Counted from the first letter of the stretch, positions 364 to 56,581 are shown. The stretch: 64,000 nucleotides of DNA from an uncultured Bacillota bacterium (GCA_900317975.1 ONIZ01000002.1:6473-70472), one strand, 5' to 3'. The notes: generated by a model not told the origin, from the sequence alone. Program-made: numbers and translations.

Positions 364-376
364 CCCCTGTAAAGGG
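364..376 (+). repeat. dispersed GC-rich motif copy (cccctgtaaaggg), intergenic
   Basis: Sits at the centre of the 11-bp palindrome 348-358/383-393. Confidence 0.8.
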
Positions 377-403
377 AATGTCATATAGGCTATCGACAAT
401 TAC

Positions 404-1036
404 TTATTCAGCAACAGCATCGTTTAGTTCTTTTGCTTTAGCAGGAACTTCAGCATGAACTTCAGGAATTACCTTAATAAAAGGATCGTTATAACTAATG
501 TTATTATCTACAGTTCCATGAATTGCTGTAACAGGTACAATTTTAAAGCTCATAAAGCAAATAGGATGTTCTTTAATAGGTACATTATTTTCATCCTTTG
601 CAGTTCCAGAAAGAATTGTAGCTGTAAGATAATTTTTCTCTTTAGGTTCTTTACTTGAAACAATTTTTTCTTCTCTGAGTAAATAAGAAATAATGTTTTC
701 GTATGTTAAAGCACTAGGAGGAGTAATTTGAGTTCCTCTTGCAATATCTGATTCATCGATTATAACTTGTTGTCCTATTTTCCATTCTGCAGGAATAGCG
801 TCCGAATTAATTTTAACAAGAACTGCAATATCAACTGCACGAGTTTTTACTTTAGGATTGTTTAAAGTTATAAGAAAATCATACATACGAACTTGTCGTA
901 CAACTGCTACAATTGCATAATGCTTTGGAAGATTAATACAATTTGTAACATCTTCATAATACTGTGCTGGAATCTCATGAATTGATTGAGGAAGAGATAA
1001 TGTATATCTCTCAACTCGACTTTGAAGAGTAATCAT
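404..1036 (-). CDS. hypothetical protein (210 aa)
   Basis: Long ORF with no competing ORF of comparable quality. The overlapping + ORF 455-658 is low complexity. Confidence 0.7.
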   Translation of the reverse strand: MITLQSRVERYTLSLPQSIHEIPAQYYEDVTNCINLPKHYAIVAVVRQVRMYDFLITLNNPKVKTRAVDIAVLVKINSDAIPAEWKIGQQVIIDESDIARGTQITPPSALTYENIISYLLREEKIVSSKEPKEKNYLTATILSGTAKDENNVPIKEHPICFMSFKIVPVTAIHGTVDNNISYNDPFIKVIPEVHAEVPAKAKELNDAVAE

Positions 1037-1084
1037 AAATTTGTTTGTTTAATTGTTAATATTGATATTAACTACAAATGTAGT

Positions 1085-1522
1085 TTAAAGAAGCATTACT
1101 AAAACTTTTTTACCATGAACGTCATCTTTTATATAATATTTATCATATAGATAAATTTTAGGATAAGCTTTTTTAACAATTCCTCTAGCAGTTAATTCAT
1201 TTAATGCTCTAATATAAGTTGGTCTACTAATTTTATATTTAATACAAAATATTTTTTCAAATTTAGCATTACTTTCAATTTCACCACCATTTTTATTTAA
1301 TTCTATAAATAAATTCTCACCATGTTTAGTAAGATTTAATAAATGAGCATAAATTTGTAATATATCTTGTTCTTCATTAGTCTTTTTAAAGACTGCAATA
1401 ACATCTTTTTCTTTTCCCCATAATTTAGTTTTATTAGCAACAACAAACTCATCGTCTGTTTTATCTAATAAAAAATCATCTTGAGGAGCTATAAATTCAT
1501 TAAAAACTGTTTTAAGTTCCAT
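1085..1522 (-). CDS. putative winged-helix/HTH DNA-binding regulator (145 aa)
   Basis: The segment ISRPTYIRALNELTARGIVKK looks like a helix-turn-helix recognition unit. The gene sits next to a divergent promoter region. Confidence 0.5.
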   Translation of the reverse strand: MELKTVFNEFIAPQDDFLLDKTDDEFVVANKTKLWGKEKDVIAVFKKTNEEQDILQIYAHLLNLTKHGENLFIELNKNGGEIESNAKFEKIFCIKYKISRPTYIRALNELTARGIVKKAYPKIYLYDKYYIKDDVHGKKVLVMLL

Positions 1523-2728: not shown

Positions 2729-3316
2729 ATGGCACAGCCAAAAGCTAATGCAGTTGAGCAAGTTCCTGCACAAGTCGTTAACGCAGTTGAAACTGCAAGT
2801 GTTAATCTTCTTAGCTTCTCTGAAGCAGTCGATGCAACGATTGCTGATGGTGGCAAAGTAACAAAGGGTATTCATATTACTCGTGCGACTTATAGTCGTC
2901 GAGAAGATGGACACGAGATTGTTACTTTGACAGGCGATATACCTGTTGAGCGTTATGTTGCTGATGAGACAAATCCTGATGTATTTGTCAAATCAATGTC
3001 CAAGTCATTTGTTGTGTCATTATTCTCATTAGTGGGAATGATGTCCAACATGAAGGACGCACAAGTGCTCGCAGGTCGTATCTCAAAGCGACCAATGTTG
3101 ATAGAGAGTTTGCTACCAGGTAGTATTATTACAGTAGTTCAACGTGATGTCAAAGGTAATGTTCCGTTTATGAACTACTTTAGTAACAAGGAGAATACTA
3201 TCGATCATGATAGTATTGTTACCGACGTAGTCAAACTTGAAGTATCTGATTTTGCTCGTTCTATGATGGATGAGTACAAAAAGATGCTTGCATCTGCATT
3301 GATGGGAGACTTGTAG
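2729..3316 (+). CDS. hypothetical protein, paralog A of a duplicated gene (195 aa)
   Basis: Long ORF that is visibly less A+T-rich than its surroundings. It is strongly similar to 3906-4460 (ITRATYS.RE.DGHE.VTLT...PDVFVKS.SK.FVVSLFSLVG.MS.MKDAQVLAGRISKRP). Confidence 0.8.
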   Translation: MAQPKANAVEQVPAQVVNAVETASVNLLSFSEAVDATIADGGKVTKGIHITRATYSRREDGHEIVTLTGDIPVERYVADETNPDVFVKSMSKSFVVSLFSLVGMMSNMKDAQVLAGRISKRPMLIESLLPGSIITVVQRDVKGNVPFMNYFSNKENTIDHDSIVTDVVKLEVSDFARSMMDEYKKMLASALMGDL

Positions 3317-3905: not shown

Positions 3906-4460
3906 ATGAACGATGAAAAAGCAAAGGAAGTTGTAAGTCAGCCACAACTATTGACCTTTACTGAGGCAATTACTGCCACAAAAGCTGACAATGCATCTGA
4001 AGTAAAGAATCTTCAGATTACTCGTGCTACATATTCAAAGCGTGAGGAAGATGGTCATGAAGTAGTGACATTAACAACAAGTGGTCTTGTTGACAGATAT
4101 ATTGCGGATAACGATAATCCCGATGTATTTGTTAAGAGCAAAAGCAAAACTTTTGTAGTATCTTTGTTTAGTCTTGTAGGTGCTATGAGTCAAATGAAAG
4201 ATGCTCAAGTTCTTGCTGGACGTATTTCTAAACGTCCTGTTCTTGTTGAATCTCTTCTTCCTGGTTCTACTATTACTGTACTTCAACGTGAAGTTAAGGC
4301 TAATGTTCCTTTCATGAATTATTTCAGTGGAAAGGAAAACACTATTGACCATGATAGTGTTGTAACAGATATTGCTGATATTAAGCTTGGAGAGTTTGCT
4401 CTTAGTACTCTTGATGCTTATAAGCAAAATCTTGCTGCTGCTCTTATGGGCGATTTGTAA
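3906..4460 (+). CDS. hypothetical protein, paralog B of a duplicated gene (184 aa)
   Basis: Roughly three quarters identical to 2729-3316 over the C-terminal 150 aa, judged by eye. Confidence 0.8.
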   Translation: MNDEKAKEVVSQPQLLTFTEAITATKADNASEVKNLQITRATYSKREEDGHEVVTLTTSGLVDRYIADNDNPDVFVKSKSKTFVVSLFSLVGAMSQMKDAQVLAGRISKRPVLVESLLPGSTITVLQREVKANVPFMNYFSGKENTIDHDSVVTDIADIKLGEFALSTLDAYKQNLAAALMGDL

Positions 4461-5457: not shown

Positions 5458-5913
5458 ATGAAAAAGTATTTTAAAGAATTTATAGGAACATTAGTTCTTA
5501 TAATTTGTTTTATTATTTTAACAATAACGTTTATTGCTATAGGAAAATATTATAACGATACAATACTTATCGTTATAGGTATAACAATTAATGTTTTAAC
5601 TATAATTATGTTAATTGTTATAAATATTCAAGAAATAAACGAACGTGATAAAATTATACATAATCTAAATGAAAAAATAACTGAAGAACATACTTCAGTT
5701 ATAATGACTAGAATGATGTGTAATCAAGCTTTATCAGATGCTCTAATTTTAAGAAAAATAATTGACCAAAAAAATAAAAAAATAGAAAAATATGAAAAAC
5801 ATATAAATGAATTAATTCATAAAATTAATTGTATAAATAATGAAGCAAAAGAGCTTCAAGATTTATGCAATAGATATGAAACTCAATATGGTAAATTGAC
5901 AGATCAAGAATAA
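5458..5913 (+). CDS. membrane-anchored coiled-coil protein (151 aa)
   Basis: Two hydrophobic N-terminal segments (LVLIICFIILTITFIAIG; ILIVIGITINVLTIIMLIVI) followed by heptad-like charged sequence. Confidence 0.7.
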   Translation: MKKYFKEFIGTLVLIICFIILTITFIAIGKYYNDTILIVIGITINVLTIIMLIVINIQEINERDKIIHNLNEKITEEHTSVIMTRMMCNQALSDALILRKIIDQKNKKIEKYEKHINELIHKINCINNEAKELQDLCNRYETQYGKLTDQE

Positions 5914-5920: not shown

Positions 5921-5933
5921 CCCCTGTAGAGGG
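5921..5933 (+). repeat. dispersed GC-rich motif copy (cccctgtagaggg), intergenic
   Basis: Forms the hairpin TGTTCCC/GGGAACA at 5918-5937, immediately after the stop of 5458-5913. Confidence 0.85.
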
Positions 5934-6152
5934 AACATATCTATCAATTGCTAATATTGATACTGTTATAGATAATAATAAATATAATATTGATATAGTT
6001 AATATATTATAACTTGTATATATATTATATATATTATATATAATAATTATATTATATATTTATTTATTATTATTTATAATAATAAATATAACGCACGTGC
6101 GTGCGCGTATAGTGTTTTGTAGAACATATATAATAATAAAAAATATCGTTTT

Positions 6153-8714: not shown

Positions 8715-8800
8715 GCCGTGATGGTGGAATAGGTAGACACGAAAGACTTAAAATCTTTTGACCAGAAATGGTTGTGTGGGTTCAAGTCCCACTCGCGGTA
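8715..8800 (+). tRNA. tRNA-Leu (anticodon UAA), type II with long variable arm, no encoded CCA
   Basis: Hand-folded. Acceptor GCCGTGA/TCGCGGT, D arm GTG..CAC, anticodon stem AAAGA/TCTTT with loop CTTAAAA. Variable arm ACCA-GAAA-TGGT, T arm GTGGG-TTCAAGT-CCCAC. Confidence 0.85.
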
Positions 8801-8832
8801 CTAATATTAATAATCTTAAATTTAGTAAAATT

Positions 8833-9441: not shown

Positions 9442-9625
9442 ATGACATTAAAAGAATATAAAAATAATATAGGTAGAAAAGTTACCTATATTCCCCTTTA
9501 AAGGGTGTGATCCTAAACTCTATGAAGAAGGAGTTATTACAAGTACAAACAATAAATATGCATTTGTACGTTATAATTCAGATATTAATTCTAAAGCAAC
9601 TAATCCTAAAGATTTAAAATTATAA
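9442..9625 (+). CDS. small protein interrupted by TAA at 9499-9501; intact only with a +1 shift at CUU-U (or a pseudogene)
   Basis: Frame 0 reads MTLKEYKNNIGRKVTYIPL-stop. Frame +1 continues KGCDPKLYEEGVITSTNNKYAFVRYNSDINSKATNPKDLKL to the stop at 9623-9625. Confidence 0.4.
9493..9505. repeat. dispersed GC-rich motif variant (cccctttaaaggg, fully palindromic)
   Basis: Contains the in-frame TAA that interrupts 9442-9625. Confidence 0.6.
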
Positions 9626-9978: not shown

Positions 9979-10050
9979 GCTGCCATCGTATAACGGTTAG
10001 TACTCAAGATTTTCATTCTTGCAATCCGAGTTCGATTCTCGGTGGCAGTA
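9979..10050 (+). tRNA. tRNA-Glu (anticodon UUC), no encoded CCA
   Basis: Hand-folded. Acceptor GCTGCCA/TGGCAGT (G1-U72), D stem GTAT/GTAC, anticodon stem CAAGA/TCTTG with loop TTTTCAT, T arm CCGAG-TTCGATT-CTCGG. Confidence 0.8.
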
Positions 10051-10054
10051 CAAA

Positions 10055-10071: not shown

Positions 10072-10154
10072 GTTTGCAAATCAAACATATATTTGAATTG
10101 ACTACTCTTGCTTGTGAAAGTAGGAGTAGTTTTTATCTTAAAATTAATAATATT

Positions 10155-11387: not shown

Positions 11388-11774
11388 ATGGCTAAAAAAC
11401 ATTATGATGAAAAGAGAGTTCTCAATGAACTTACTCGCAAAGGTGTTGATTTAAGTTTCAGCACACGTTTGATTACAGTTAACACTTCTAATGGAAATGT
11501 AGGTATTCATTCATGGGGAAAGATTGATTTCCTTGTAAAACATTGCGATTGGCATTGTATTTGTAAATCTTCTGAAGAGTTAAAACAAGAAAAAGTTGAT
11601 GCTCAAAAAGAATACAATGCAAACAAAAAAGCAGCTAAACTTAAAGCTAAAGAAGAAAAGCTAAAAGATGCTGCTAAAAAAGAAAATGTTAATTCTCCTA
11701 TTAAAAAAGGAGTAATTAAAGCAGGAAAAAACATGTTTAAAACTTTAAAAAGTATTAAAACTGTTAAAAAATGA
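11388..11774 (+). CDS. hypothetical protein with Lys-rich C-terminal tail (128 aa)
   Basis: The tail KKAAKLKAKEEKLKDAAKKEN suggests nucleic-acid binding. This is inference only. Confidence 0.6.
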   Translation: MAKKHYDEKRVLNELTRKGVDLSFSTRLITVNTSNGNVGIHSWGKIDFLVKHCDWHCICKSSEELKQEKVDAQKEYNANKKAAKLKAKEEKLKDAAKKENVNSPIKKGVIKAGKNMFKTLKSIKTVKK

Positions 11775-12286
11775 GCAAAATAACTTTTTCTTTTACAGTA
11801 CCTCATAGAACAAGTACTGCAAAATCTAAAAGAAATAATGCAAATCACTCTGCCAAGATAATTGACGGAGTGATTTGCATTGATGAAAATGCTAATTATT
11901 CTGTAAAAAGTCTATGTAGTAATGGAGAATTAAAAACTTATAATATTTCTAAGTCTTCCTATAGTTGTAAAAATAAAGAAGTAATATATCGTTTTAATGA
12001 AGGAGAAAGAGGTATAATGCAATTATGGCGTCCAAGTATACATCTTTCAGAAAGTGTTTATAATTTTAAACCTTTTGCTCCAGGCGTAATAGTTGAAGGA
12101 TATTTAATTAAAGATTCTAATTTAGAAGATGTTATAGAAATAATTAAAATTCATAATATTATAGATGATGATAAAAATTTATATAATAAATATTATAATA
12201 CATGTAAAGCAGTAAAAAGTTTTTATAATGATAATTGGAAAACTATTCATAATTCTTATGAAATGAAATATGGAAATGCAAAATAG
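11771..12286 (+). CDS. hypothetical protein (171 aa)
   Basis: ORF whose start overlaps the previous stop by 4 nt (ATGA). Confidence 0.65.
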   Translation: MSKITFSFTVPHRTSTAKSKRNNANHSAKIIDGVICIDENANYSVKSLCSNGELKTYNISKSSYSCKNKEVIYRFNEGERGIMQLWRPSIHLSESVYNFKPFAPGVIVEGYLIKDSNLEDVIEIIKIHNIIDDDKNLYNKYYNTCKAVKSFYNDNWKTIHNSYEMKYGNAK

Positions 12287-13739
12287 TATTGTCCCTTTAC
12301 GGGGGAACAATAATAATTCAATAACATTCACAAAAGGTCAAGAAATAGCAGTTAAAGAAATACTTAACTTCCTTACTGAACCTTTTGATAAAGCTAAATT
12401 TATAGCTGGATTAATAGGTGCAGGTGGAGTAGGTAAAACATTTGTTATAAAATATATATTAGCAAATTGTAATTATTCTAAAAGTGTAATAACTTGTTGT
12501 AGTACAACTCATAAAGCTTGTAGAGTATTCTATGAAGCTTTAAATGGACTTTATCAAGTATATACAATTCAAAGTACATTTGGTTTTAGAATGGATTTAA
12601 AACTTGAAGATTTTAATCCAAATAATCCACAATTTGCTCCAAAAGCTACTCCTAAAATAGATGATACTAAAATTTTAATTGTTGATGAAGCAAGTATGAT
12701 ACCTGCAAGTTTAGTTGGATATATTAGAAAAGTTTGTATTGAAAAAGAAATTAAAATTTTATTTGTTGGTGATAACGATCAATTACCTCCAGCTAAACAA
12801 TTAAAAAGTACAGCATTTGATATTTGTTTTAAAAAGTTTGTTTTAAATGAAATTGTAAGACAAGGTGTAAAAAATCCTATTTTAGGACTATTAGATATGT
12901 TAAGATATGATATTGAAAATAATACTAATAGATTTATAAGATATTTAACAACTAATATAGGAACAATGAATTATAATGAAAATAATGAAGGTTATTGTAT
13001 ATTAAATAGACAAGAATTTACTCAAGCTGTAGTAAATAAATTTAGTAATCCAGATTATTCTAAAAATATTGATTTATATAGAATGATAACTTATACAAAT
13101 GATGCTGTACAATCATGGAATGATTTTATTAGAAATATTATAGTAATTGATTCAGAAAAAAATATATTAACAAAACATGATTTATTAATGGCATATGAAA
13201 CTATTGTAGATGATTATCAAAGTCCTATAATAATTAATAGTGAAGAATATATTGTAAATGAAATAGTAAATTATATAGATAATACTTATAAATTTAAAGG
13301 ATTTAATGTACGTCTTCAAGCAATACATGGTGGAAAAATAACTACACCAATGTTTATTATAGATCATAGAGATAGATATACAATGTTAAAATATCATGAA
13401 ATTGTAAGTTCTCTTATAAAAGATGCTAAATCTTCTAGTATAGGTGTTCGTTCTGCAAAATGGAAAAAGTATTTTGATTTTAAACGTAAATATCTTTTAC
13501 TTAAAAATGTTAAAAATGCTTTAGGAGAATTACTTTATGATAGAGATTTAGATTATGGTTTTGCTATAACCTCTCATAAATCTCAAGGAAGTACTTATGG
13601 TTGTGTATTTGTTGATTGTATGGATATGATTTATGATAAACGTGGATTACCTTATACATTAACAAGTGATTTACTTAAACGACTTTATGTTGCTTGTAGT
13701 AGAGCAAAAACAGAATTAATACTTTGTTATGGAAGATAA
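12270..13739 (+). CDS. SF1 DNA helicase (RecD/Dda/Pif1-like)
   Basis: Walker A GAGGVGKTF, Walker B ILIVDEASM, GDNDQLPP, and the C-terminal SHKSQGSTY and YVACSRAK motifs. Confidence 0.85.
   Translation: MEMQNSIVPLRGNNNNSITFTKGQEIAVKEILNFLTEPFDKAKFIAGLIGAGGVGKTFVIKYILANCNYSKSVITCCSTTHKACRVFYEALNGLYQVYTIQSTFGFRMDLKLEDFNPNNPQFAPKATPKIDDTKILIVDEASMIPASLVGYIRKVCIEKEIKILFVGDNDQLPPAKQLKSTAFDICFKKFVLNEIVRQGVKNPILGLLDMLRYDIENNTNRFIRYLTTNIGTMNYNENNEGYCILNRQEFTQAVVNKFSNPDYSKNIDLYRMITYTNDAVQSWNDFIRNIIVIDSEKNILTKHDLLMAYETIVDDYQSPIIINSEEYIVNEIVNYIDNTYKFKGFNVRLQAIHGGKITTPMFIIDHRDRYTMLKYHEIVSSLIKDAKSSSIGVRSAKWKKYFDFKRKYLLLKNVKNALGELLYDRDLDYGFAITSHKSQGSTYGCVFVDCMDMIYDKRGLPYTLTSDLLKRLYVACSRAKTELILCYGR
12293..12305 (-). 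repeat. dispersed GC-rich motif copy (rc cccccgtaaaggg), in the helicase gene
   Basis: Translated as VPLRGN. Confidence 0.65.
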
Positions 13740-16682: not shown

Positions 16683-18054
16683 TGAAAAATATGCAAAAGA
16701 AATAATGTCTGCTTTTCAAACTGCTAAAGGTAAAGGATATTGTTTTTGTATAAATCCTATATTACCATATAAATTAGTTGCACAAACTGCAATTGGTATT
16801 AGTAGTAAAGATGAAAGTAGAAAAATACTTATTGTAACACCTTATTATGATGTTACAAATAAGATTAAAGGAGAATTAATAAAGATTGATAATAAAGAAT
16901 ATACTAATATATCTTATTTAACTAAATTATATGTAAATCCTAAATACAACTATAATTATGATTGTACAATTGTTGTTGGAGTAAATGGTGAAGATAGTAT
17001 TGATTTAGAATTATTGAGAAAACTTGATAGTTGTAGTAAATTTACTTTATTTATATTTACTATAAATTCTTTGCCTAATGATATAAATTTATTTCTTACT
17101 AAACATAGTAATTTTCTAAAAACAACAGTTACTCCAAATGAAGCTCGTATGGCTTATCTTTATTCCCCTGTAGAGGAATGGAGATGTGGAGTAGAATTAT
17201 CAGAAACTGATAGAGAAGAATATGATAAAGCAAATCAATATATTGCTGACTGTATAAGTATTTTTGGAGATTTAAAAACTATTGAAAAATGTGCTCGCGG
17301 TGATAAATTATTAAATATAAGTGCAAGCGAATTTAGATATAATTTTGCTATTGAAAATGGTTGGAATGAACATTTAAATATGAATTCTGATTATGAAAAA
17401 AGTATAGATGAAATTTATAATCCAAATACATTAAATGAAAAAGCAAATACTTTTTATACTATTACACATAAAAGAAAAGAAATAGCGATAAATAATGATA
17501 ATAAATTAATTGAAATAGGTAAAATAGTAAGAGAAAATTATGATAAAAAAATATGTATAGTTTCTAAATCTGGAGAAATGGCATTAGCTATTGCTAATTA
17601 TTTAAATGGAGAAGAATTTGCTGAATTAAATATAAAATGTGGTCAATATCATGATTGTATACCAGAAACTTATGGTATCGATGATGAAGGTAATATATTA
17701 ATTCGAAAAAGTGGTAAAGATAAAGGTAAACCTGTTATTCTTAAATCACAAGCCTCTTCGACGCAATATGAAAGACTATATAATTTTGACATTATTAATA
17801 TAATGAGTATAAAATTTGCTTCTAATGTTAAATTAAAAATATCTTTTGACTTAATTATTTTTACAGATTGTTTAACAGCAAATATAATTGATTTTAAAAG
17901 TCGTTTTATAAATAGTTATTGTAATAGTTTACCTAATAAAGTATATAGATTGTATAGTACAAATACTATTGAAGAAAAATCTTTAAATAGTGAAAATATA
18001 ATGTCAAATGTACAAATAATGTCGCATATTGAAGAAAAATTCATTTTTGATTAA
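16669..18054 (+). CDS. hypothetical protein (461 aa), possibly a degenerate helicase-like accessory protein
   Basis: Long ORF overlapping the polymerase stop. No clear Walker A was seen, so the function is uncertain. Confidence 0.7.
   Translation: MMTPNEKYAKEIMSAFQTAKGKGYCFCINPILPYKLVAQTAIGISSKDESRKILIVTPYYDVTNKIKGELIKIDNKEYTNISYLTKLYVNPKYNYNYDCTIVVGVNGEDSIDLELLRKLDSCSKFTLFIFTINSLPNDINLFLTKHSNFLKTTVTPNEARMAYLYSPVEEWRCGVELSETDREEYDKANQYIADCISIFGDLKTIEKCARGDKLLNISASEFRYNFAIENGWNEHLNMNSDYEKSIDEIYNPNTLNEKANTFYTITHKRKEIAINNDNKLIEIGKIVRENYDKKICIVSKSGEMALAIANYLNGEEFAELNIKCGQYHDCIPETYGIDDEGNILIRKSGKDKGKPVILKSQASSTQYERLYNFDIINIMSIKFASNVKLKISFDLIIFTDCLTANIIDFKSRFINSYCNSLPNKVYRLYSTNTIEEKSLNSENIMSNVQIMSHIEEKFIFD
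17165..17177 (+). repeat. dispersed GC-rich motif copy (cccctgtagagga), in 16669-18054
   Basis: Translated as SPVEEW. Confidence 0.8.
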
Positions 18055-20956: not shown

Positions 20957-20979
20957 ATTATACAACTAATTAACAATTT

Positions 20980-21017
20980 AGCCTCTATACCTTAATGGTA
21001 TAGGGGCTATTTTTTTA
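20980..21017 (+). terminator. intrinsic terminator
   Basis: 12-bp stem AGCCTCTATACC/GGTATAGGGGCT (one G-T wobble) followed by 8 T. Confidence 0.8.
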
Positions 21018-30217: not shown

Positions 30218-30253
30218 TATGATTAATCACACTACGAGGATTCAATTATAGTT

Positions 30254-30266: not shown

Positions 30267-30295
30267 ATTGATAATATCTTCAAACATATTTTATT

Positions 30296-30607
30296 ATGAA
30301 TACAACAATAATTGTTATTTGTTTTATAATAACATGGGTTATTATATTATTATTGTTTATTACTACTCATTATAATACTACAGAAAGACTTCGTTCTATA
30401 CGTCATTATGTTGCTAATTATTCTGATAATTATAGTTATTTTGAAAAAATTAAAAAGCAATATGAGACTTTAACAAAGAATATAGAATGTTTAAATAAAA
30501 AGATTGATAAATATATTGATAAAGTAGAAATTAATAAAGATTATTATCATAAGACAGCACAAAATAACGAAAATACAGCCTCTTTGAAGGACTCTAAATC
30601 AAAATAA
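30296..30607 (+). CDS. membrane-anchored coiled-coil protein (103 aa)
   Basis: N-terminal hydrophobic segment IIVICFIITWVIILLLFI followed by charged heptad-like sequence. The architecture resembles 5458-5913. Confidence 0.6.
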   Translation: MNTTIIVICFIITWVIILLLFITTHYNTTERLRSIRHYVANYSDNYSYFEKIKKQYETLTKNIECLNKKIDKYIDKVEINKDYYHKTAQNNENTASLKDSKSK

Positions 30608-42800: not shown

Positions 42801-44976
42801 AATTTTCATTTACAACTATATTTCCTTCATTATCTTTTATAAATAAACCTGGTCTTATAATTCTACCTTTTCTATCTTTTAATCCATAAAAAAATGGATT
42901 TTCTTCTATTTGACTTAAATTACCATATCTTCTAATTAAAGTTCTACTTCCTTTTAAACTACTTTCTTTAATAGCCTCAAAAAGATTACTAATATGGCTA
43001 TTTGCTATAAGATTAGAAGAATTATTACCATTTGCATTAGGTGAATTTAAATCAATTGTAGTAGTATTATAACTTGTTAAAAGTTTTGTTATTGTAATTA
43101 AAGAAGCTTTAATACTTTTTTCATTTTCTATATCAATTGTTTCTTCTAAACTAAAAGTTGGACGTATGGGAGATTTAAGATTTGTACTTTTTATAACATT
43201 ATTAGCTAAATCTTCCATTTCTTTATCAAAGGCTCTTCTTTTTTCTCTATATTCGCTATATTCTTTATTAAATTTATCTCTTCCATTACTATATTTTTTA
43301 TATAATCTGTCAATTTCTTTAGAAAGTTGTTTTACATGGTGTAATAAATTAAGTACATCGGCATAAGGAGCATTTTCTATAAAATCAGAAATTGCTGTAA
43401 AATTATAATTTGGTGCAATAGTTCTAAAAAAATCAATAATAGGTCCAATAAGTTTAATTTTTTCTTCATTAGACATATTTTCACTAATATTTAATTTAGA
43501 AATTTTTTCTTGTAATTCAGAAGAAACATTCAAAAAATTAATTGTATAATCATTACGCAATCTTAAATATTCTTTATTGACTGCGTCTGCATCATTATTA
43601 CTTCTAGAAAATTCAAATTGATTTGTTTCTGGATTTATTTTTACAGTAGCTTTTTTAACTTTGTAATGAGCTAAATTTCTATATATATTTCTAGCAAAAA
43701 CAGGATTATTTTTCATTTCTACAATCATTGGCATAATTCCATAAAATTCAGGAATTTCAGTAGCCATTTTAGTAAGTTTTTCTATAAGAGACTCTATAGA
43801 ATTAAAACTATCTATAGTTTTGACATTTTTAATCAATTGAATATAAAGATTTTCTCCATCATAATTTTCTTTTACTCCTAAAGGATTATTTCTAGAATAG
43901 TTAGGAATTTCATTTTCTCCAGTTGTATAAGGAGAATCTAATTTATATAATACAGTTCCTAAATATATTTGAAAATTACTATCAATTAATTTTTTATAAC
44001 TATTGGCTACTTTACCTTTATCCCAACCATTATCTTCATTTCTATCTTGTTCTGCATTTTCAAAATCTATAGCGTCGTCGAAATCTGTGACTTCATAAAT
44101 ATCATCAACGTCTAATTTTGAAAATTGTTGACTAACTTTATTAACTGTAGCTAAAGATTTTACTTCAGTAAACCAAATAGCATAATTATACATAACTTGA
44201 TTATATAATGCAGTATAATTTTTAACTTCAGTAGTTCCAAATATTTCTATAAAATTTAATAAAAATGCATTTCGTTCAACAGCTTTAGCTTTTAATAAAT
44301 CATTTATTTCTTTTTTATTTTCAGCAGCAGCATTTTTAAAATCATTTTGCAATTGTATCAATTCATTATTTAATTTTTTTAATTCTATTAATTTAGAACT
44401 TAAAATTTTTTCTTCATCTGTTAATTTATCAGAGTTATTTTCTATTTCTGATTCTTTAATTTTAATAAATGATGGAAGCACATATCCATAATATTCATCT
44501 TTTATTTCATTTTTAGTAATATCAAATATTTTTTCAATAGATTCATTTTGATGTTTTAAATAATTAATTCTTATTCTATTTGCAGTATAATTTTTTCCAT
44601 ATTCTAATGCAATTTGATTTTCAAATCCTCTAAGCTCATATCCTTCTCTTATAGCAGCATAATCTTTAACATTTTCGTTAGTTACTCTATAGTATCTGTT
44701 AAAAATTGCACTTAATTGATTAAAATTATAATTTTTTAATTCTTCGATAGTTTTAAGTTTATTATCTTCAGAATAATTTAATCGTAAATCGCTATTTATA
44801 CTTTCTAAATATTGATTTGCAATTTTAACTACTTCATCCAAATGATGTTCTAAACCATAAGCAATAGTTATTGCTTTAAGTTTATTGTTTCCTGCAACTT
44901 GGTCACTTTCTATGACTCTTTTTATACTCGGAGTTATTATTTCCGATGTATTTAAATGAAAAATAAGACAATTCAT
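30805..44976 (-). CDS. giant virion-associated protein (4723 aa) containing a two-barrel RNA polymerase-like catalytic motif
   Basis: An uninterrupted 14.2-kb ORF. GSDFDVDS (39658-39672, rc) fits the DxDxD metal site of double-psi beta-barrel RNAPs as reported for crAss-like virion RNAPs. A hydrophobic segment lies near the C-terminus. Confidence 0.7.
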   Translation of the reverse strand: MNCLIFHLNTSEIITPSIKRVIESDQVAGNNKLKAITIAYGLEHHLDEVVKIANQYLESINSDLRLNYSEDNKLKTIEELKNYNFNQLSAIFNRYYRVTNENVKDYAAIREGYELRGFENQIALEYGKNYTANRIRINYLKHQNESIEKIFDITKNEIKDEYYGYVLPSFIKIKESEIENNSDKLTDEEKILSSKLIELKKLNNELIQLQNDFKNAAAENKKEINDLLKAKAVERNAFLLNFIEIFGTTEVKNYTALYNQVMYNYAIWFTEVKSLATVNKVSQQFSKLDVDDIYEVTDFDDAIDFENAEQDRNEDNGWDKGKVANSYKKLIDSNFQIYLGTVLYKLDSPYTTGENEIPNYSRNNPLGVKENYDGENLYIQLIKNVKTIDSFNSIESLIEKLTKMATEIPEFYGIMPMIVEMKNNPVFARNIYRNLAHYKVKKATVKINPETNQFEFSRSNNDADAVNKEYLRLRNDYTINFLNVSSELQEKISKLNISENMSNEEKIKLIGPIIDFFRTIAPNYNFTAISDFIENAPYADVLNLLHHVKQLSKEIDRLYKKYSNGRDKFNKEYSEYREKRRAFDKEMEDLANNVIKSTNLKSPIRPTFSLEETIDIENEKSIKASLITITKLLTSYNTTTIDLNSPNANGNNSSNLIANSHISNLFEAIKESSLKGSRTLIRRYGNLSQIEENPFFYGLKDRKGRIIRPGLFIKDNEGNIVVNENFKKYFDIFLFDGIQKTDYSQSVTYQSATKSDYFFTQLLAFFNGINQPGTEEKGLAFFLDTPSDAQKNYIMSVPPIKTDDIFSYDGKDSVAVAKFISLYNNKVTKINELAKTDFEYELNNKLNRLGEQHNFDKSKFFRTLIGKNNDTYRSYAFSIKNSNGVSTVPIIYKEGDTTFYLEMKIEYVDNSKKIFKFSEINNLYVLKNKFLEDTLTDTFVSIFKNNIIENEIEENSIERKINKNSEIFLGYKQLLKSELYNYIHQLGNVIETEDNDKVGGNNWKIAKSKKGLINLVHRKGNKIIENGKLVGNFFRFDKLFKIGNFDVDSILNNKLSLYGDVNTNSLFYTDDKDNLYINEDSDIIKLNINKKGQKVIVDFKYTEEIDNILDDVVSDWLMEFQKDTTDALNEYSNVLDINLKKLNKTNLDVVNFVLATTYIRLATEPIITGDNKFYNKWSEDDEGNRQDDIRTFLKRAKEVQAGGQVYYGGDIYEQPGTDIHNLKYNGKEELITTSNIKVRTKDENGKEKWIIKQVPIYARNGFRAITIENTVKTSEQGDIIKKQLQKTMDKKVADGIVSKSVANRLVNYLSDAFTNAKTKVNDAQSYITFEEWIRRRYADGTYNEYKDLIETINKLRSKEITLADVDINSINKRIQVQKNFYFDIQTDKKTGTMYPRQIKNAEFVLIPELLVGTDLEKLYNAMVEAGIDQVNTIETSKAANRDILTFWDNNQKVVNYDEFISQISSPLDGDNRNYNYNVVEDYYYRNLWKQQDVAEHTKDEVNKAGLQITKKIIDNATEDVDKFVNAFITNFSTNIKASYDQMLFNMGWMIDKNTGRIVNRSNGKELLDFREFYIRALQEAERLGMDSNFKEYFEIDETAGYPKMPNFMNINSEKQESVTQALFNSSVRKQTLPGWHMAQVSGVGTGVRDTTGKIRTLKYHSDEKGNYVPYIEVLIPRWSMNIPKYKRTPKKENESNDVYYTRIEKEQQKFDEEILKKLNDAKLLEHIGYRIPTEGKQSVAIMKVVGFVDDIYGSTIFVPNEWVTQTGSDFDVDSIYGICHNFRYNEKTKNFEKINENNKDTQLDRENRYIAYIKQLIKNGRIKTLQDTLNKDNKLLNEEKRNNISNILKDINNIQAKLQNTDYFKNNYKQQNELIQSLPANIKEMISRNMKKINDAYGDLEIRDKHYIEQFKIFLKSPKINPQIKSSIQELIDIINDRKAITNELNNISDNWNRIESEKESYHAALLSAINDLANEYNLIKYDEFIKLPILEQQIREARNNNIIDNFLEILKNDSSFEENMSRSNFDDITAVNKTISKLEAIKSKHNQAVANTLTQIQFFEDAIMGARLKALSVQRDTFLSVSNKIHGKLKTPILVAYDLNQQIYNSDKKSYEDIFEGETLKDKKDNLKSLYNEYRESNDDEYIVAHDELGWHSHNGKTTNRNILGRLMTVYSSETTAHILDAVKEGAIINETEDTFGIFKTLIDLGIDYSTAIGFLAQPAITKLVKNFNNNKSIYINDNNNAIVETMVQILNEAGYNEVSNYSDLKTVIKKGKEFFKLSDENIINVKDLYNALNGNDTLLHQFQVLSIYSQLNGITKNIENLVQCCNPDKFGAKQTIHDTKEALINIYNYGFNANNDAIFEITNDKDIPFLQSLYPGLFERSGLREKDSSYEYLASFLKYTTIPSVVINSQLFDLESPEFSLGYYGLVELFNDNKTFSLCELIEHKLGRRLTNDEYKEYKKYIVSSVFNENKTLVTPLIVDKYNRFIPDIENLDISEKNTENDANTVTPHANYWNREKMRIFGFGVQGYRDIKVNNIEKPTKEEIKAFSKLTPAQKVDWIKLHFRNNAEIFNYIETNYISRGSYSLYGVNINSLKVKFGNDVEILYSAFRKAAFSKNPLIKLAAADLVKYAFIVEGDNFKFGGISRIITNDFLYTSNNDYGFTINPNYSFVEELSSQLHDIDIREKSGNTFIERFIRQHHTFIKELNLNTTISKDTNSSEKSIFYNSTNSDRSVLIKVGNKNSPNQSLIKKILGSDQTKGFVKIKSKNDKIELYKVERIEIENALYGIYLYPIGILEENEYNDYSVKEENNPLYKHEYYETQFKDIIKVLPTVDLDKYKYENRATAEDKVENYKIPVYAAEKMENDEFQQILNGEKGDESSKKGIEMFIEQITDFIKTPVEGDDIKKYTVAATLNPYLMNLFKENTSIIQDILVDGELHTIIIKPYKRKNLESLKRILRDNAISGKKKYTSNKAEDNLIDYLFKNKFADKHMLLSVEIGYKTDEELNEAVKEEDNERKIKAAVTNLLIDEDDVSRPLDSKVEPIDKFAGELAKRMYNRSKRSDNSIIQRFARKVSTGELIVDDKDSVIKNKRNIFVSAASYYEQEANLLLDRMKHYVIGEGENKKDFNIGNPNLYEELLKYPEYYDDLIALILNAKNFGRDIGEVFSLDVEVEDEIINKSIETIRKSINLIRNNNLLNGENGAISNIFNIYIAKKYSNNPLIRHDLIKLRTQFGDINWFDLQIADAGFTNNKQIQTVLKLVYGIIDRVRDIEAPDAVREFQEKYDNIMKSGNIDMNKIIDEHGKYIQKYNDKYFEDKQTVIDNYIEAMAKYGKYSEQALKAKLERDEWFAKNVEQLLVKEYYDAINEATRRILYGDETINGENAINYFIEYNKLKDELSGFTYDASAMTESDIKRIKEIHSRLSELTQETKGEFDTTEDGEIISMSSDNIYIDRQAQILNHYIKSLKEINSKYKEYEPTDSWVKTIRHYLDIISEFDKLHPGLSLNAKLENPSYKEAYVWVNKNSIYSINEKTLKEISKNYEILRGSKHSTFKNITIWCKRNGFVDEFGRIDGRKLSLEQQRGIKNAMENSKLRSNASILSDDALINQVRFKKPIYKDKFYLDVYGGEHFSQNADKLEKIKEINKIFVNANAVTSKGIDMILLLSHLNIEELRNLRDKINELREIKGKKLPKDIRNRLKALTEKVTDNESFKADYLTVKSHFQTSEPAKFAIWLQMFVEHDSETGDLVMEDNTYVPEYLFYGYRSPIESQKDKYIDKEKTAARNFIDENIEYVTNEYYKEAWDNAVNNGAFEEWFEANHIYNQFTKRYETIPIWSNMRIKNEVSRNKYEYIPTFDNSERNPRHDDEVDYRNPNYKTYGSHFKEDTADKKYINEKYSKANLNDNEIKMLNFLINTARKYVINNGQRSFADTYAPRLMEHRADKKFRRNVVLDILGVNYRSSANDKWHEEIGYLYDSDPDFQMFELLKNEGYKERVKARPRNEGETDEQYSKYLNDIKKENEEIHKNNLELDSAMLNRNWREVYSQLVLNGENYLARNKAKNSLYLLLEDLLENDAIKGNRITGKPIVNKNSSNNPEMIKYLTEKQEHAFKIMQTFARRVIYDEYKKQHKLTGAANLLQGFTSSKYMMLNIHGGIANVSTGLVNILAERFAGEYFSNKAWWKAEAKYGANVLSAIADMYYDDASSFTNGLIKLINAVDYDEINGELVKSATAVEFARRLNDFLFSPNSMGEHFMQNTAALAMIEDARIYEDGNGGYRIGNINDYMRDIEIETLKEIITEWGDSYKINSTSIITLFNNYIKNIKKDKKVQYDYDTFKKDICMDFIQLITRQANDNSKLANEYIKRRKSAIEKAKKEFETKDRLIDQFEFKLNKNGDGRGVTRIKHDSKLNINPSTGELDSTIGNTTFKEFTRRIIYVNKKIHGVYDKLGRATIENEFWGSLVMQYHKHIYPGIMKRYRGIFGGGGYYNELLEGVEMGSYTSLLRFLSTEFRNLDLKKKQIIDENGNIVDTDISALESLQNIAHAFIATITHISLNWNLLPAWEQRNILRAIGDIAGIIGTALLVIGMYAMWDDEDFKDDLLLANTLYTANRMFSEAYMYLPTGMISEFDSLWASPVAGSSNIKDIMKGFEILSEILFNDDFNPKYTTGQYKGRYKLEVLATRNIPVYRIYKNILNMGARNSYYNGGTGNSKAQAGLREIGKSLKE
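36269..36281 (-). repeat. dispersed GC-rich motif copy (rc cccctgtagaagg), in the giant RNAP-like gene
   Basis: Translated as TPVEGD. Confidence 0.7.
37209..37220 (+). repeat. dispersed GC-rich motif copy (ccccgtagaggg), in the giant RNAP-like gene
   Basis: Translated on the reverse strand as SLYGV. Confidence 0.65.
40571..40583 (-). repeat. dispersed GC-rich motif variant (rc cccctttagatgg), in the giant RNAP-like gene
   Basis: A weaker copy. Confidence 0.45.
41799..41810 (+). repeat. dispersed GC-rich motif copy (ccccgtagagtg), in the giant RNAP-like gene
   Basis: Translated on the reverse strand as SLYGD. Confidence 0.6.
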
Positions 44977-45107: not shown

Positions 45108-51844
<6,737 letters not shown>

Positions 51845-51845
<1 letters not shown>

Positions 51846-53542: not shown

Positions 53543-53545
53543 TAA

Positions 53546-54634
53546 TTAAAAAGTTATACCATCTTCTCCTGCCATATCGTCACTAGAAGCACCATTTACG
53601 CTTTCTGTTGTATCACTAGTTCTATTTGTAGTTCCAGCAGATTCTCCACCTAAATCACCATATCCAGGAGTTTCATTTATATTATTTTTTCCTCCACCTT
53701 TAAATAAATAAGGATTAAATAAATTAACATCTCTAGAAGTAACAAGTTTTCTATATTTACTACCCTCAATACTATTCACAAATGTATATTGAATAAACTC
53801 TAAAGGACTTCTTTCAACCCCACTAGCAGTATATAATCCATAATCTGTATTATCTCCATGTTCTTTAGCCCATTTAGCATATTTAATTTTTTGATTAATA
53901 TGAGCTTGATAAGCTTGATTATGTTCATATAAACCTATAACACTTTTAAATAATTTATCACCTGTTACTTCTTCTTTCATATTTCCATATTTATCTATTA
54001 TAGCAGCACTAACAATATCTTCACTATTTGCTCCAACTTCTTTTCCATTTATATCATAAAATTTAAGAGTCTCACCAGAAGTTACATCAGGTCTAGTAAA
54101 TTTAATTACTTCTTCAAACATTTTAGTATCATCTATATAACTTACTGGTCTATCTATCGGCTCCCATTTACTACCTCCTATAATTTTACTTCCATCTTGT
54201 GAATATTTATCTTCATAATAATAAGGATTTTTATCAATATACATGTCTTTCATATATTCAGGAATATCAGTACGTTTTAATATTTCATCTTTAAATGCTT
54301 TATAATCTTGTTGCGCTCTTAATCTTCCTAATACTCTAGGATCGCTCATTATTTTACCACTTTTAGCAATAATATCATCTAAAGCGTAATACATATTTCC
54401 ATATTTAATACTATCGTCAATTGTTTGTTGTAATTCATCTAATAATTCTTGTTTAGTTCCATCCTCTTTTTCATTAAAATCAAGTTGTCCAATAGCAGTT
54501 TGTAATTGACTAGCTGCTTCTACTGCTTTTAAATGACCAGCTTCTAATTTATCAGAAGTTGATATTAATTGGTCAATAGCAGCTTTTCTTGATTCAGCTG
54601 TACCATCTTGATATATATAATTTCCAAAAGTCAT
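53546..54634 (-). CDS. hypothetical virion protein (362 aa)
   Basis: Long ORF within the same tightly packed leftward operon. Confidence 0.75.
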   Translation of the reverse strand: MTFGNYIYQDGTAESRKAAIDQLISTSDKLEAGHLKAVEAASQLQTAIGQLDFNEKEDGTKQELLDELQQTIDDSIKYGNMYYALDDIIAKSGKIMSDPRVLGRLRAQQDYKAFKDEILKRTDIPEYMKDMYIDKNPYYYEDKYSQDGSKIIGGSKWEPIDRPVSYIDDTKMFEEVIKFTRPDVTSGETLKFYDINGKEVGANSEDIVSAAIIDKYGNMKEEVTGDKLFKSVIGLYEHNQAYQAHINQKIKYAKWAKEHGDNTDYGLYTASGVERSPLEFIQYTFVNSIEGSKYRKLVTSRDVNLFNPYLFKGGGKNNINETPGYGDLGGESAGTTNRTSDTTESVNGASSDDMAGEDGITF

Positions 54635-54649
54635 AATTGTATAAATTTA

Positions 54650-56581
54650 TTAAACATGTGACATAGCTTCAACAGAATTTGGATTTCCAGCTAAAGCAGC
54701 TTTATATCTTAACCAATTATATATAGTATTTCCTCCAGCATTAGCAAATTGATTTACAATACCTGCATAAGTTTCTAACATTTTAGTTTCATTTTCACTA
54801 CGTTTATCAAGTAATTGCATATTTAACATTGCTTTCTGATGTTCAACATTTTGTGCATTTTGAATATTTTTAGCAATAGTTTGACCTTGTTGCAATAAAT
54901 TTTGATTAATTAAATTTGTTTCAATATTTTCTTTTTGTCCATATAATTTCATATTTTGTAAAGCAGTATTATATCGTGCGCCATGTTTTCTTGCTAAAGC
55001 TACTTGAGAACTAGCTGTATTTGCATCTATATCTCTTAATGTTAAACCTAAGTTTCTTCTATTTTCAGATAATTGAGGATTTATATTAAATCTTGTTTTT
55101 AAACTAATTAAAGGTATATCATAAGATTTAATACTATCTACAATAGATTTCATTTTATTTAAATAATGCGCATTAGATAGAACATTTGCAGAAGCTCCAG
55201 CCAATCCAGTCAATGCAGATGCTCCATGTAAAATAACATTACCTAAAAAATATCCTGCACCTTGAGGACCATATTTATCAGTTAATTTTTCTCTTATAGA
55301 TTTCTTTTTAGCAGGAATATTATTTTCTGTTAGTTTATCTTCAGGTTTTGGATTTTCAATAACTCTATAAGGAGATTTAACTTTATCTACAGTTTTATCA
55401 CCTATTTTATAACTTTTTGGTTCAAGTAATCCAGTTTCAGGATTAATATTATATTTAAAATCTGTAGCAATAATTGGAGTAACTCCTATAGGCATATCTT
55501 CTTTTCTTTCATACCATTTTCCGTCTGTACCCCAAAGTGCTCTTTTTCTATTATTTGATTGATATTGTTTCCCTGTAGAGGGAACATATCCTAAAAGACT
55601 TGCATTTTTTTCTTTGTTTGTCATACCACCATATTGTTTTTTTGTTCTTTGACTATTTCTAATTTTTTCGTCTAAATCTTTATTTTTATTTTTAAATGTA
55701 TTATATAACATATTGTTTAAATATAATTTATCTTTTTGATTTTCTCCAGTTGCTATAAAACTGCTATAATTTTTTGTTTCATTTATAGGTATATTTTTTA
55801 ATAAAGATTCTGCATTATAAATATTAACTCCGTTTGATTTTAATTTATTTAATATTTGTAAAGCATTAGAATCACCCATATTATAAGCCATAAGAGCTTT
55901 AATTGTAGTAACAGTATCATTTTCATTATTAGGATTATTTATCCAAGGTCTATTCATATATCCATCCATTAATTTATTTCTAACCATTATTGCTGTATCA
56001 GTATTTAAAACACTTTCATAAGAAATAGAATCGCCAGTTTGTCTATTATATTCATCTACGCCAATAGGTCTAATTTGAAATAATCCTCTTGCATTTTTAC
56101 TATTTGTTGAAGTAGTGTCATATTTACTTTCAGCATAAGCTTGTCTACTAGCAACATCTTCTAAATAATTGTTTTCTCCCTCTAAAGGGGATTTATTACT
56201 ATTTCCGCCAAATAATTTTTTAACAAATTCTTTTATTCCAAATTTAGCTTTTTTCTTACTGCCATCATCATTAATTCCATTAATCTGCTTATATTGTTCT
56301 TGTGCTGCAAATATTAAATTTGGATTAGCACCTTTTAAAACTAAATTTGCAGGACTTTCACCACCTAAAAATTTTTGTGCACTAAACACTCTTACTTCAT
56401 TATTGTTTTTATCTTTTTTAACTATTTCTCCATTATCAACAGATAATTTAGCAATACCATTTTTTAGTTTTACATCTGTATCTATATCATCAGTTTTATT
56501 CGGATTTTTACCTATCATTAAATAATAATCATTTCCAATAGGTAATGCTAAACCTTTTTTTGTAGTAATATTGTTAATCAT
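54650..56581 (-). CDS. internal/ejected virion protein with lytic transglycosylase (SLT) domain (643 aa)
   Basis: AYAESKYDTTSTNSKNARGLFQIRP fits the SLT catalytic Glu-Ser ... GLMQ pattern. The C-terminal half is hydrophobic plus coiled-coil. Confidence 0.65.
   Translation of the reverse strand: MINNITTKKGLALPIGNDYYLMIGKNPNKTDDIDTDVKLKNGIAKLSVDNGEIVKKDKNNNEVRVFSAQKFLGGESPANLVLKGANPNLIFAAQEQYKQINGINDDGSKKKAKFGIKEFVKKLFGGNSNKSPLEGENNYLEDVASRQAYAESKYDTTSTNSKNARGLFQIRPIGVDEYNRQTGDSISYESVLNTDTAIMVRNKLMDGYMNRPWINNPNNENDTVTTIKALMAYNMGDSNALQILNKLKSNGVNIYNAESLLKNIPINETKNYSSFIATGENQKDKLYLNNMLYNTFKNKNKDLDEKIRNSQRTKKQYGGMTNKEKNASLLGYVPSTGKQYQSNNRKRALWGTDGKWYERKEDMPIGVTPIIATDFKYNINPETGLLEPKSYKIGDKTVDKVKSPYRVIENPKPEDKLTENNIPAKKKSIREKLTDKYGPQGAGYFLGNVILHGASALTGLAGASANVLSNAHYLNKMKSIVDSIKSYDIPLISLKTRFNINPQLSENRRNLGLTLRDIDANTASSQVALARKHGARYNTALQNMKLYGQKENIETNLINQNLLQQGQTIAKNIQNAQNVEHQKAMLNMQLLDKRSENETKMLETYAGIVNQFANAGGNTIYNWLRYKAALAGNPNSVEAMSHV
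55570..55582 (+). repeat. dispersed GC-rich motif copy (tccctgtagaggg), in the SLT-domain gene
   Basis: 26 nt (55565-55590) match 5916-5941 with one mismatch. Confidence 0.85.
56178..56190 (-). repeat. dispersed GC-rich motif variant (rc cccctttagaggg), in the SLT-domain gene
   Basis: Translated as SPLEGE. Confidence 0.55.

Follow-up and report, generated by a model that had tools for sequence, protein, structure and literature searches.

The DNA uptake sequences (DUS) of the Neisseriaceae and the uptake signal sequences (USS) of the Pasteurellaceae are, as generally described, short asymmetric words, over-represented in both orientations, which lie between genes and, in tolerated frames, inside open reading frames (ORFs), form terminator-like hairpins as inverted pairs, are spaced more evenly than random and exist in lineage dialects that co-evolve with their reader. 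Chi sites are likewise polar, over-represented words of kilobase-scale density, which serve DNA processing rather than gene expression. A G+C-rich word that resembles both is present in a stretch of DNA from an uncultured Bacillota bacterium (GCA_900317975.1, ONIZ01000002.1:6473-70472), hereafter the window, which covers 64 kb of a ~90-kb genome and is very A+T-rich (19-33% G+C). The PolB encoded there assigns the sequence to a phage of the Intestiviridae (Crassvirales), with 53% identity to PolB of Carjivirus communis, the prototype crAssphage. Like DUS and USS, the word is over-represented and asymmetric, occurs in both orientations, within ORFs and between genes, and has lineage dialects. 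Judged from its distribution in the sequences compared here, it is probably a cis-acting DNA signal common to the Intestiviridae, which would be read strand-specifically by a phage factor of drifting specificity and kept about every 5-7 kb on each strand.

Abundance, dialects and strand layout

An earlier note on this DNA had listed 18 copies of the word, all of which were found, with the reverse-complement coordinates off by 0-2 nt. A position-weight-matrix scan of the window recovered the same 18 loci (0.27 in shuffled sequence at that threshold) and added one weak partner, on the minus strand at 30225. The note's rough estimate that the 11-mer CCCCTGTAGAG should be expected far less than once is borne out, with four exact copies against 0 in 100 dinucleotide shuffles, and the 10-mer CCCTGTAGAG has the seven exact copies claimed for it, rising to 14 at one mismatch or fewer (0.5 expected). 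With up to three mismatches the 14-mer CCCCTGTAGAGGGA gives 20 matches, where shuffles give 0.36 +/- 0.56; two of the 20 are double hits on near-palindromic copies, and the others are the 18 loci. The window logo is T(-5)nnnT(-1) [C/T]CCC[T/C][G/T]TA[G/A]A[G]([G/T])GA, in which CCC and TA are invariant and the left half is, as had been noticed, somewhat better conserved than the right.

Every Intestiviridae genome examined (the window phage, crAssphage, crAss002, cr8_1 and nine relatives from IMG/VR) contains the word in its own dialect, and the dialect is common to all copies of one genome:

Window: ttTgTT-CCCCTGTAGAGGGA, 18 copies in 64 kb
crAssphage: gTAGAC[CT]CCCCGT[AG]GAGGATGGA, 32 copies against 0 in shuffles
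crAss002: ttCCCCC[GA]TA[AG]AGGAG, 31 copies
cr8_1: TCTAGCC[GC]CCCCGTAAAAGGTATGTA, 27 copies of a 26-nt version
IMG/VR relatives, partial loci only: CCCCCGTAGAGGAA; CTCCCCCGTAGAGGGA; AGCTTGCCCGTAGAGGGA; aatYCCCTGTAGAG

The core common to 107 sites is CCC-Y-R-T-R-R-A-R-G-R, in which pyrimidines closing with CCC(Y) are followed by R-T and a stretch of six purines. Both strands are well populated (plus/minus totals of 10/8 in the window, 18/14 in crAssphage and 13/18 in crAss002). A megablast search of INPHARED revealed no close relatives of the window, and relatives were instead drawn from IMG/VR by means of PolB; scanning IMG/VR with the exact 14-mer returned mainly chance single hits, plus two multi-hit crAss contigs. 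An additional G+C-rich tract resembling CGCTTCGCTCCGC was seen 5-25 nt upstream of some copies, mostly intergenic, in crAssphage, crAss002 and cr8_1; its being common to crAssphage and crAss002 suggests a longer composite element at some sites.

Two phages of other families lack the word: crAss001 (Steigviridae) and, over its first 50 kb, cr52_1 (Suoliviridae). A different 11-nt word, (C)TCCAGAAGG, is over-represented in crAss001 (NC_049977.1; 27 hits with a 28-nt matrix against 0.65 in shuffles), and as CTCCAGAAGG it gives 31 hits with a 14-nt matrix. It was considered as a Steigviridae analogue and rejected on its random orientation and spacing, may reflect peptide or codon bias (SPEG / PEG), and serves here as a negative control. 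As far as the literature could be searched, the Intestiviridae feature looks undescribed: no paper with the word in a crAss context and no description of such a feature was found, and it is not mentioned in papers on the crAss virion RNA polymerase (RNAP), the phage-plasmid lifestyle of crAssphage or crAss002, nor in a Crassvirales review.

The layout of the copies is given below as alternating neighbour pairs and as the coefficient of variation (CV) of same-strand gaps:

Window: 15/17 pairs alternate, p = 0.002; CV plus 0.21, minus 0.31
crAssphage: 21/31 pairs, p = 0.04; CV plus 0.32, minus 0.52
crAss002: 24/30 pairs, p = 0.0006; CV plus 0.73 (not significant), minus 0.36
cr8_1: 21/26 pairs, p = 0.001; CV plus 0.43, minus 0.35

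The near-alternation of orientation reported for the window is real and recurs in the other three genomes. Seven of the eight strand series are regularly spaced (CV 0.21-0.52, P <= 0.006), with mean same-strand gaps of 5.2-7.7 kb and a smallest same-strand gap, read by eye from the site lists, of ~1.9 kb. Between neighbouring sites of any orientation the largest gap is 6.3-8.1 kb, where random placement would give ~12 kb by our estimate, which was not computed. Neighbours less than 1 kb apart form 23 pairs across the four genomes, of which 12 are convergent, 11 divergent and none direct, and copies on opposite strands come as near as 28 nt, forming tight pairs of 28-121 bp. In simulation, two independent regular series reproduce the observed alternation of 0.68-0.88; the orientations therefore alternate because the copies are regularly spaced on each strand. 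The crAss001 control word has neither regular spacing nor ordered orientation. The idea that one strand class is always the more regular holds in three genomes and fails in cr8_1. What the earlier note missed is that the word is family-wide, that it occurs in the prototype crAssphage and that its alternation is a by-product of per-strand spacing.

Selection on the word and its setting among genes

Gene direction in the window switches from the plus to the minus strand at ~30.6 kb. The copies are distributed among them as follows, including the weak partner:

364-377, plus: motif copy CCCCTGTAAAGGGA, outside ORFs, 26 nt past the stop of minus-strand ORF 404-1036
2230-2243, minus: motif copy CCCCTGTAGAGTGA, within the 1.2-kb non-coding region 1523-2728
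5921-5934, plus: exact 14-mer, 7 nt past the stop of ORF 5458-5913; extended inverted repeat TGTTCCC/GGGAACA
9493-9506, plus: degenerate copy CCCCTTTAAAGGGT, in no ORF >=80 aa, flanked by two tRNA genes
12292-12305, minus: motif copy CCCCCGTAAAGGGA, where ORF 11771-12286 meets the start of a Dda-like helicase gene; counterpart at 8504, minus, in relative L119
17165-17178, plus: motif copy, sense in SNF2-like gene 16669-18054 (S-P-V-E-E); orthologous to crAssphage 11758, plus, and crAss002 80351, minus
21846-21859, minus: motif copy, antisense in primase gene 21024-22214 (SLYR); orthologous to crAssphage 16620, minus, and crAss002 74262, plus
23708-23721, plus: exact 14-mer, sense in ATP-dependent ligase gene 23458-24687 (T-P-V-E-G); orthologous to crAssphage 18150, plus
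27350-27363, minus: motif copy TCCCTGTAGAGGGA, intergenic, 9 nt past a stop codon and 17 nt ahead of the start of a Gam-like gene
30225-30246, minus: weak degenerate partner ATTGAATCCTCGTAGTGTGATT, score 12.1, a threshold with 20 hits in the window against 0.67 in shuffles
30254-30267, plus: motif copy CCCCTGTAGAATGA, intergenic, between ORF 29177-30217 and ORF 30296-30607
36268-36281, minus: motif copy, sense in giant RNAP-like ORF 30805-44976 (T-P-V-E-G)
37208-37221, plus: motif copy, antisense in the giant ORF (SLYG); position not kept in crAssphage or crAss002
40570-40583, minus: motif copy, sense in the giant ORF (S-P-L-D-G); position not kept in crAssphage or crAss002
41798-41811, plus: motif copy, antisense in the giant ORF (SLYG)
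46404-46417, minus: motif copy, sense in 2245-aa ORF 45108-51845 (S-P-V-S-G)
48806-48819, plus: motif copy, antisense in the 2245-aa ORF (PSTG), with an (ATT)n run directly after
55570-55583, plus: motif copy, antisense in ORF 54650-56581 (PSTG)
56177-56190, minus: motif copy, sense in ORF 54650-56581 (S-P-L-E-G); 607-bp convergent pair with 55570, plus

The earlier note had placed 13 copies inside ORFs; a majority does lie there, with the count at 12 for ORFs >=80 aa, and six copies (364, 2230, 5921, 9493, 27350 and 30254) fall outside. Reading frames and peptides agree with its list. All six sense copies are read in one frame, xCC CCT GTA GAG GGA, giving [ST]-P-[VL]-x-[GE], and one of the other two sense frames of the word contains TAG; the antisense copies encode SLY[GR] three times, PSTG twice and PLRG once.

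Three genes allow the word to be followed as DNA through diverging proteins. The SNF2-like, primase and ligase genes each contain a copy offset by 1-7 nt from one in crAssphage, and for the SNF2-like and primase genes the same is true of crAss002. Sense or antisense orientation is kept in proteins that are 31-51% identical among the window, crAssphage and crAss002, and codon and orientation stay the same in genomes with as little as 33-60% protein identity. The codons CCY GTA GAG GRA are retained throughout nine and seven aligned orthologues while the flanks diverge, and at pairs of identical amino acids codon identity is 0.84-0.92 within the word as against 0.65-0.68 in the rest of the gene. 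Where the dialect differs the peptide changes with it, from PVEE in the window to PIKE in crAss002. These fixed synonymous choices, the peptide following the dialect and the location of about one third of the copies outside ORFs uphold the proposal of selection at the DNA level rather than for a shared peptide, and that all copies of a genome are in one dialect is the signature of co-evolution with a single trans-acting reader. The other coding sites that could be mapped are mostly not orthologous between genera, indicating turnover; density is kept despite this turnover, with a mean spacing of 2.9-3.4 kb, near one per 3 kb.

The orthologue alignments also bear on whether the sites come and go as insertions. 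In the SNF2-like and ligase genes they are conserved in frame with no presence or absence of the site, and positions persist across subfamilies, which goes against the mobile or gene-converting G+C cluster that had been suggested; indels occur only beside the sites, as a three-codon insertion just upstream of the SNF2 site in relatives L121 and L122 and as one-codon indels beside the ligase site in L126 and L001. The primase site is conserved by coordinate mapping, the one lost site that was examined, in PolB, falls in a loop rich in indels, and the copies showed no target-site duplications.

Placement favours the space between genes where there is any. In crAssphage 11 of the 32 sites are intergenic, compared with 6.4% non-coding sequence (P = 3e-6), and five of these are co-oriented with the downstream gene and six are not. 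Sites also enter genes of 12-14 kb, as a spacing requirement predicts. Single copies of the window dialect fold at -9.5 kcal/mol, compared with -2.2 for shuffles, into a hairpin whose loop is 7 or 4 nt long, whereas the crAssphage, L001 and cr8_1 dialects fold no better than shuffles. Intrinsic terminators were rejected as an explanation, the strong ones in the window (10100-10131, 20979-21009 and 2037-2066) being without the word; motif copies flagged as terminators are weak and have no consistent strand relation. The tight inverted pairs in the relatives could act as transcription terminators.

Several features stand near individual copies in the window. Copy 364 sits in the loop of an 11-bp inverted repeat, ATAGCCTATAT/ATATAGGCTAT, and the copies at 30225, minus, and 30254, plus, form a tight divergent pair near the gene-orientation switch. 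Directly 3' of copy 48806 is an (ATT)n microsatellite (48820-48860), which codes for an Asn run on the coding strand. The last 7.8 kb (56191-64000) holds no strong copy and one weak match (60515, minus; score 11.3), and this copy-poor stretch exceeds every internal gap of the window. The early region has plus-strand genes for tRNA-Leu(TAA) (8715-8801) and tRNA-Glu(TTC) (9979-10051), the terminator-like hairpin at 10100-10131 lying 3' of the latter. Region 1523-2728, between the divergent genes 1085-1522 (minus) and 2729-3316 (plus), has no ORF >=80 aa, G+C-rich patches at ~1790-1930 and ~2510-2580 and, at 2037-2066, a hairpin with a 13-bp stem; an origin, a regulatory region or a non-coding RNA could lie here, and Rfam returned no family within it or at any motif copy. 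The gene at 2729-3316 (195 aa), which has no Pfam or PHROG match, is paralogous to that at 3906-4460 (184 aa), their C-terminal two-thirds being closely alike by eye, e.g. FVVSLFSLVG.MS.MKDAQVLAGRISKRP.

What might read the word

The earlier note's generic idea of a site for a phage protein stays the best frame. Because the word is kept on each strand wherever it is tolerated, its function is likely to be tied to DNA handling and not to the expression of particular genes; a polar word, needed on both strands everywhere and apparently read by a phage factor, points to DNA transactions. The reader would be phage-encoded, so that a drift in its specificity would shift all copies of a genome together, and copies would be placed wherever they can be, first between genes and otherwise in permissive frames and loops.

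A tentative suggestion as to the transaction itself is that the copies serve template-strand-specific synthesis on single-stranded DNA as start or loading sites. The enzyme, a stand-alone phage primase or the virion RNAP with its preference for single strands, would make RNA primers on lagging or displaced strands during discontinuous or strand-displacement replication, and tight opposite-strand pairs would be bidirectional start zones. As expected of single-strand initiation or primase sites, the copies are strand-specific in their layout, lie on both strands and are independent of genes. The suggestion is favoured by the gene content of the word-bearing phages, which have PolB, a superfamily 1 (SF1) helicase of Dda/Pif1 type and a separate primase but lack a helicase of DnaB type that could recruit this primase; crAss001, which is without the word, has DnaB and a bacterial-type primase. 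It is favoured, too, by a core that follows the same logic as primase sites, for example T7 5'-GGGTC-3', in that an initiating T would stand beside a run giving a stable G-rich primer. In vitro, the virion RNAP of a related crAss phage accepts only single-stranded or denatured DNA as template, and no promoters have been described for it, which again favours an initiation site, and a literature search found no newer paper on crAss virion-RNAP promoters. A 2023 review of the Crassvirales states the replication mode of crAss-like phages as unknown.

The tight opposite-strand pairs ahead of both crAssphage repL genes also favour such a role. Both genes (gp43 and gp88) are preceded by convergent pairs (BK010471.1, 28070-28190 and 95738-95882), and a published prediction puts one crAssphage origin upstream of gp88. 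A third tight pair, 22894 (plus)/22922 (minus), forms a 15-bp-stem hairpin just past the Gam gene, and the three pairs may be origin-related. RepL itself was rejected as the reader, no RepL homologue being detected in the window, crAss002 or cr8_1. In the cr8_1 record (NC_055877.1) a terminal overlap of ~55 nt falls exactly on a divergent pair, 42 (minus)/113 (plus), and four IMG/VR contig ends are not at the word; the cr8_1 case may be coincidence, with a probability of a few percent, or an end or assembly break at such pairs. As regards PolB, the match in relatives L125 and L126 (10001-13314) takes ~3.3 kb for 795 aa, implying an interruption of ~1 kb, likely an intron or intein; in the cr3_1 annotation a homing endonuclease separates two pieces of PolB.

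Taken as a whole, a cis signal that is read as an initiation site is the best explanation we have, plausible while falling short of probable. In its fullest form it would mean that Intestiviridae, the most abundant virus of the human gut among them, replicate or process their DNA through an undescribed system, in which a phage enzyme reads a lineage-specific word of 14-26 nt at ~6-kb intervals per strand; the word would mark hard-wired points of strand-synthesis initiation (or of nicking or loading), written through coding sequences, in a dialect co-evolving with the enzyme. We consider this possible, and offer it with reserve. A number of points weigh against it. DnaG- and T7-type primases read ~3 nt, compared with the 14-26 nt here, and the single-strand initiation signals that have been described are structured elements of 40-300 nt. 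The window primase has no Pfam or PDB match, its AlphaFold model is of low confidence (mean predicted local distance difference test score 66.8), and Foldseek with this model against the PDB returned nothing at an E-value <= 0.001. The crAss002 plus-strand series is not significantly regular, and for crAss002 and cr8_1 the sites were called by a regular expression instead of a calibrated model. Relatedness among the four genomes means that their P values are not independent, and the null models disregard coding constraints. Finally, in phi14:2, which belongs to a different family, no common motif was found upstream of the early virion-RNAP transcripts.

Among the alternatives, the one that survives best, unlikely as we hold it, is that the copies are promoters for the injected virion RNAP which work regardless of gene orientation; transcription from them would pull in a permuted headful genome and start early transcription on its first segment. 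With its phage-specific dialects, the word resembles T7-type promoters as an asymmetric, information-rich element of ~20 nt (14-26 nt), with a box rich in G+C, a YRTARA centre rich in A+T and a 3' part rich in purines, and no promoters have been described for the crAss virion RNAP. Permuted genome ends would explain why sites are needed everywhere, and crAss002 is reported to be of the pac type, headful with a permuted genome, while crAss001, the phage without the word, has fixed direct terminal repeats; direct terminal repeats have, however, also been suggested for crAssphage itself. Copies do lie upstream of the first genes of both crAssphage modules, yet intergenic copies have no preference for the direction of the downstream gene, half of all copies would yield antisense RNA, and pulling DNA in requires one orientation whereas both strands hold regular series. 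The phi14:2 transcript starts speak against this reading as well. Conventional T7-type placement, upstream of and co-oriented with genes, fits neither the location nor the orientation of the copies. An N4-like hairpin signal for the virion RNAP, as proposed earlier, is not supported either. N4-type promoters would be conserved inverted repeats with a stem of 5-7 bp and a 3-nt loop, whereas the hairpin here is confined to the window dialect, and orientation is independent of gene direction; and in place of the few co-oriented copies ahead of early genes at one genome end that characterise N4, there are 18-32 copies on both strands throughout the genome. Bacterial promoter elements around the word, a Bacteroidetes -7 box (TAnnTTTG) or sigma-70 -35/-10, were sought by eye only and rejected, being seen at few copies (e.g. 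5921) and not across the set.

It is clearly unlikely that the copies mark specific sites at which a phage nickase interrupts one strand, as known for T5, tf/LUZ24-like and phiKMV-like phages, here on both strands. A conserved asymmetric word at fixed positions, whose layout is strand-specific and whose same-strand copies keep a refractory distance, would suit nicking, and the phages encode an ATP-dependent ligase, with HNH endonucleases in crAss002, cr8_1 and crAssphage. Described phage nicks, though, are as far as is known on one strand only, an arrangement excluded here by the abundance of plus and minus copies alike; opposite-strand pairs 28-121 bp apart would risk double-strand breaks, and no nickase common to all carriers was identified.

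A Chi-like or self-tagging role, in which a polar site stops or redirects a helicase-nuclease coming from variable ends or breaks and so protects the DNA or promotes RecT-dependent circularisation or recombination-dependent replication, we regard as very unlikely. Such sites would be required in both orientations, a few kb from any possible end, and the genome-wide distribution of the word is like that of DUS/USS and Chi, its ~1 copy per 3 kb being similar to the density of Chi in Escherichia coli; the phages also hold RecT, a PD-(D/E)XK exonuclease, a RecD/Dda-like helicase and Gam. The encoded Gam, on the other hand, makes protection in cis partly redundant, and where Chi is a 5-8-nt, host-read word, dialects of 14-26 nt imply a phage reader, and none has been described. 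Membership of the Chi class itself was rejected on this length, on the phage dialects and on the interleaved orientations.

Architectural sites, bound as duplex by IHF/HU-like or other proteins for packaging or condensation, are highly unlikely. The sites are evenly spaced, and the crAssphage structural module contains two IHF-like genes, whose products as a heterodimer could read an asymmetric site; but orientation should not then matter, and an orientation-blind duplex binder cannot account for copies that repel each other on the same strand only and come within 28 nt on opposite strands. IHF-like genes are also present in crAss001, without the word, which is itself unlike the IHF consensus.

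An origin as a small mobile or gene-converting G+C cluster, as a hairpin terminator or as the by-product of a shared peptide is largely refuted and extremely improbable: tight inverted pairs do fold into long hairpins between genes, weak terminator-like scores are found for a few copies, the six sense copies share one frame and the lost PolB site coincides with an indel-rich loop, but clusters of the mobile, miniature inverted-repeat transposable element or repetitive extragenic palindrome (REP/REPIN) type are contradicted by 12 of 18 copies in ORFs and by orthologous in-frame positions with neither presence/absence nor target-site duplications, terminators by single copies that are unfolded in most dialects and by strong window terminators without the word, and a shared peptide by the roughly half of copies that are antisense or intergenic and by peptides that vary with dialect.

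Comparison with known systems

Whatever the reader, the word tells precisely where to look for RNA or DNA ends, nicks and bound proteins, at ~30 strand-resolved positions in each genome, including in the cultured crAss002 and the prototype crAssphage. The change from PVEE to PIKE makes plain that a non-coding signal constrains protein sequence over family-level divergence, and the dialects and spacing rule of the word could be used as a lineage marker, as a check on assembly and orientation, and to flag Intestiviridae contigs. If the reader protein is identified, a function would be gained for one of the conserved crAss genes that lack annotation, of which there are many.

To our knowledge, the per-strand periodic layout is known from none of DUS/USS, Chi, phage promoters or primase sites, and strict same-strand spacing has not been described for DUS/USS. 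The crAss word differs from these uptake words, further, in standing in a phage genome without competence machinery, so that the likeness is in distribution only, and in its density of ~1 per 3 kb, against ~1 per kb for DUS/USS. Chi differs in being 5-8 nt long, read by host RecBCD or AddAB and co-oriented with replication, whereas the crAss word is even on both strands.

The single-strand initiation (ssi) sites ssiA and ssiB of RSF1010, used by RepB', the G4-type origins and the T7 primase site 5'-GGGTC-3' share with the word strand-specific sites on opposite strands that are independent of gene orientation, a specificity set by a plasmid or phage enzyme, and an initiating T beside a homopolymer run. 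The ssi signals are structured, 40-300 nt long and present once or twice per replicon, unlike an unstructured word of 14-26 nt in 18-32 copies; primase sites are ~3-5 nt and very frequent. The nick sites of T5, tf/LUZ24-like and phiKMV-like phages are alike as conserved words of 9-20 nt at fixed positions with strand-specific meaning, and different in lying, as far as is known, on one strand only. T7, T3 and SP6 promoters and the N4 virion-RNAP hairpin promoters match it in length, information content, asymmetry, number (~20-30 copies per genome), dialects and the presence of the phage's own virion RNAP; the crAss copies differ in that they are not co-oriented with genes, lie mostly in ORFs and have no conserved hairpin, and the crAss virion RNAP is a two-barrel enzyme unrelated to the T7 and N4 polymerases. 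In distribution, then, the word is closest to DUS/USS or Chi-type words, and in form it is closest to phage promoter or primase sites.

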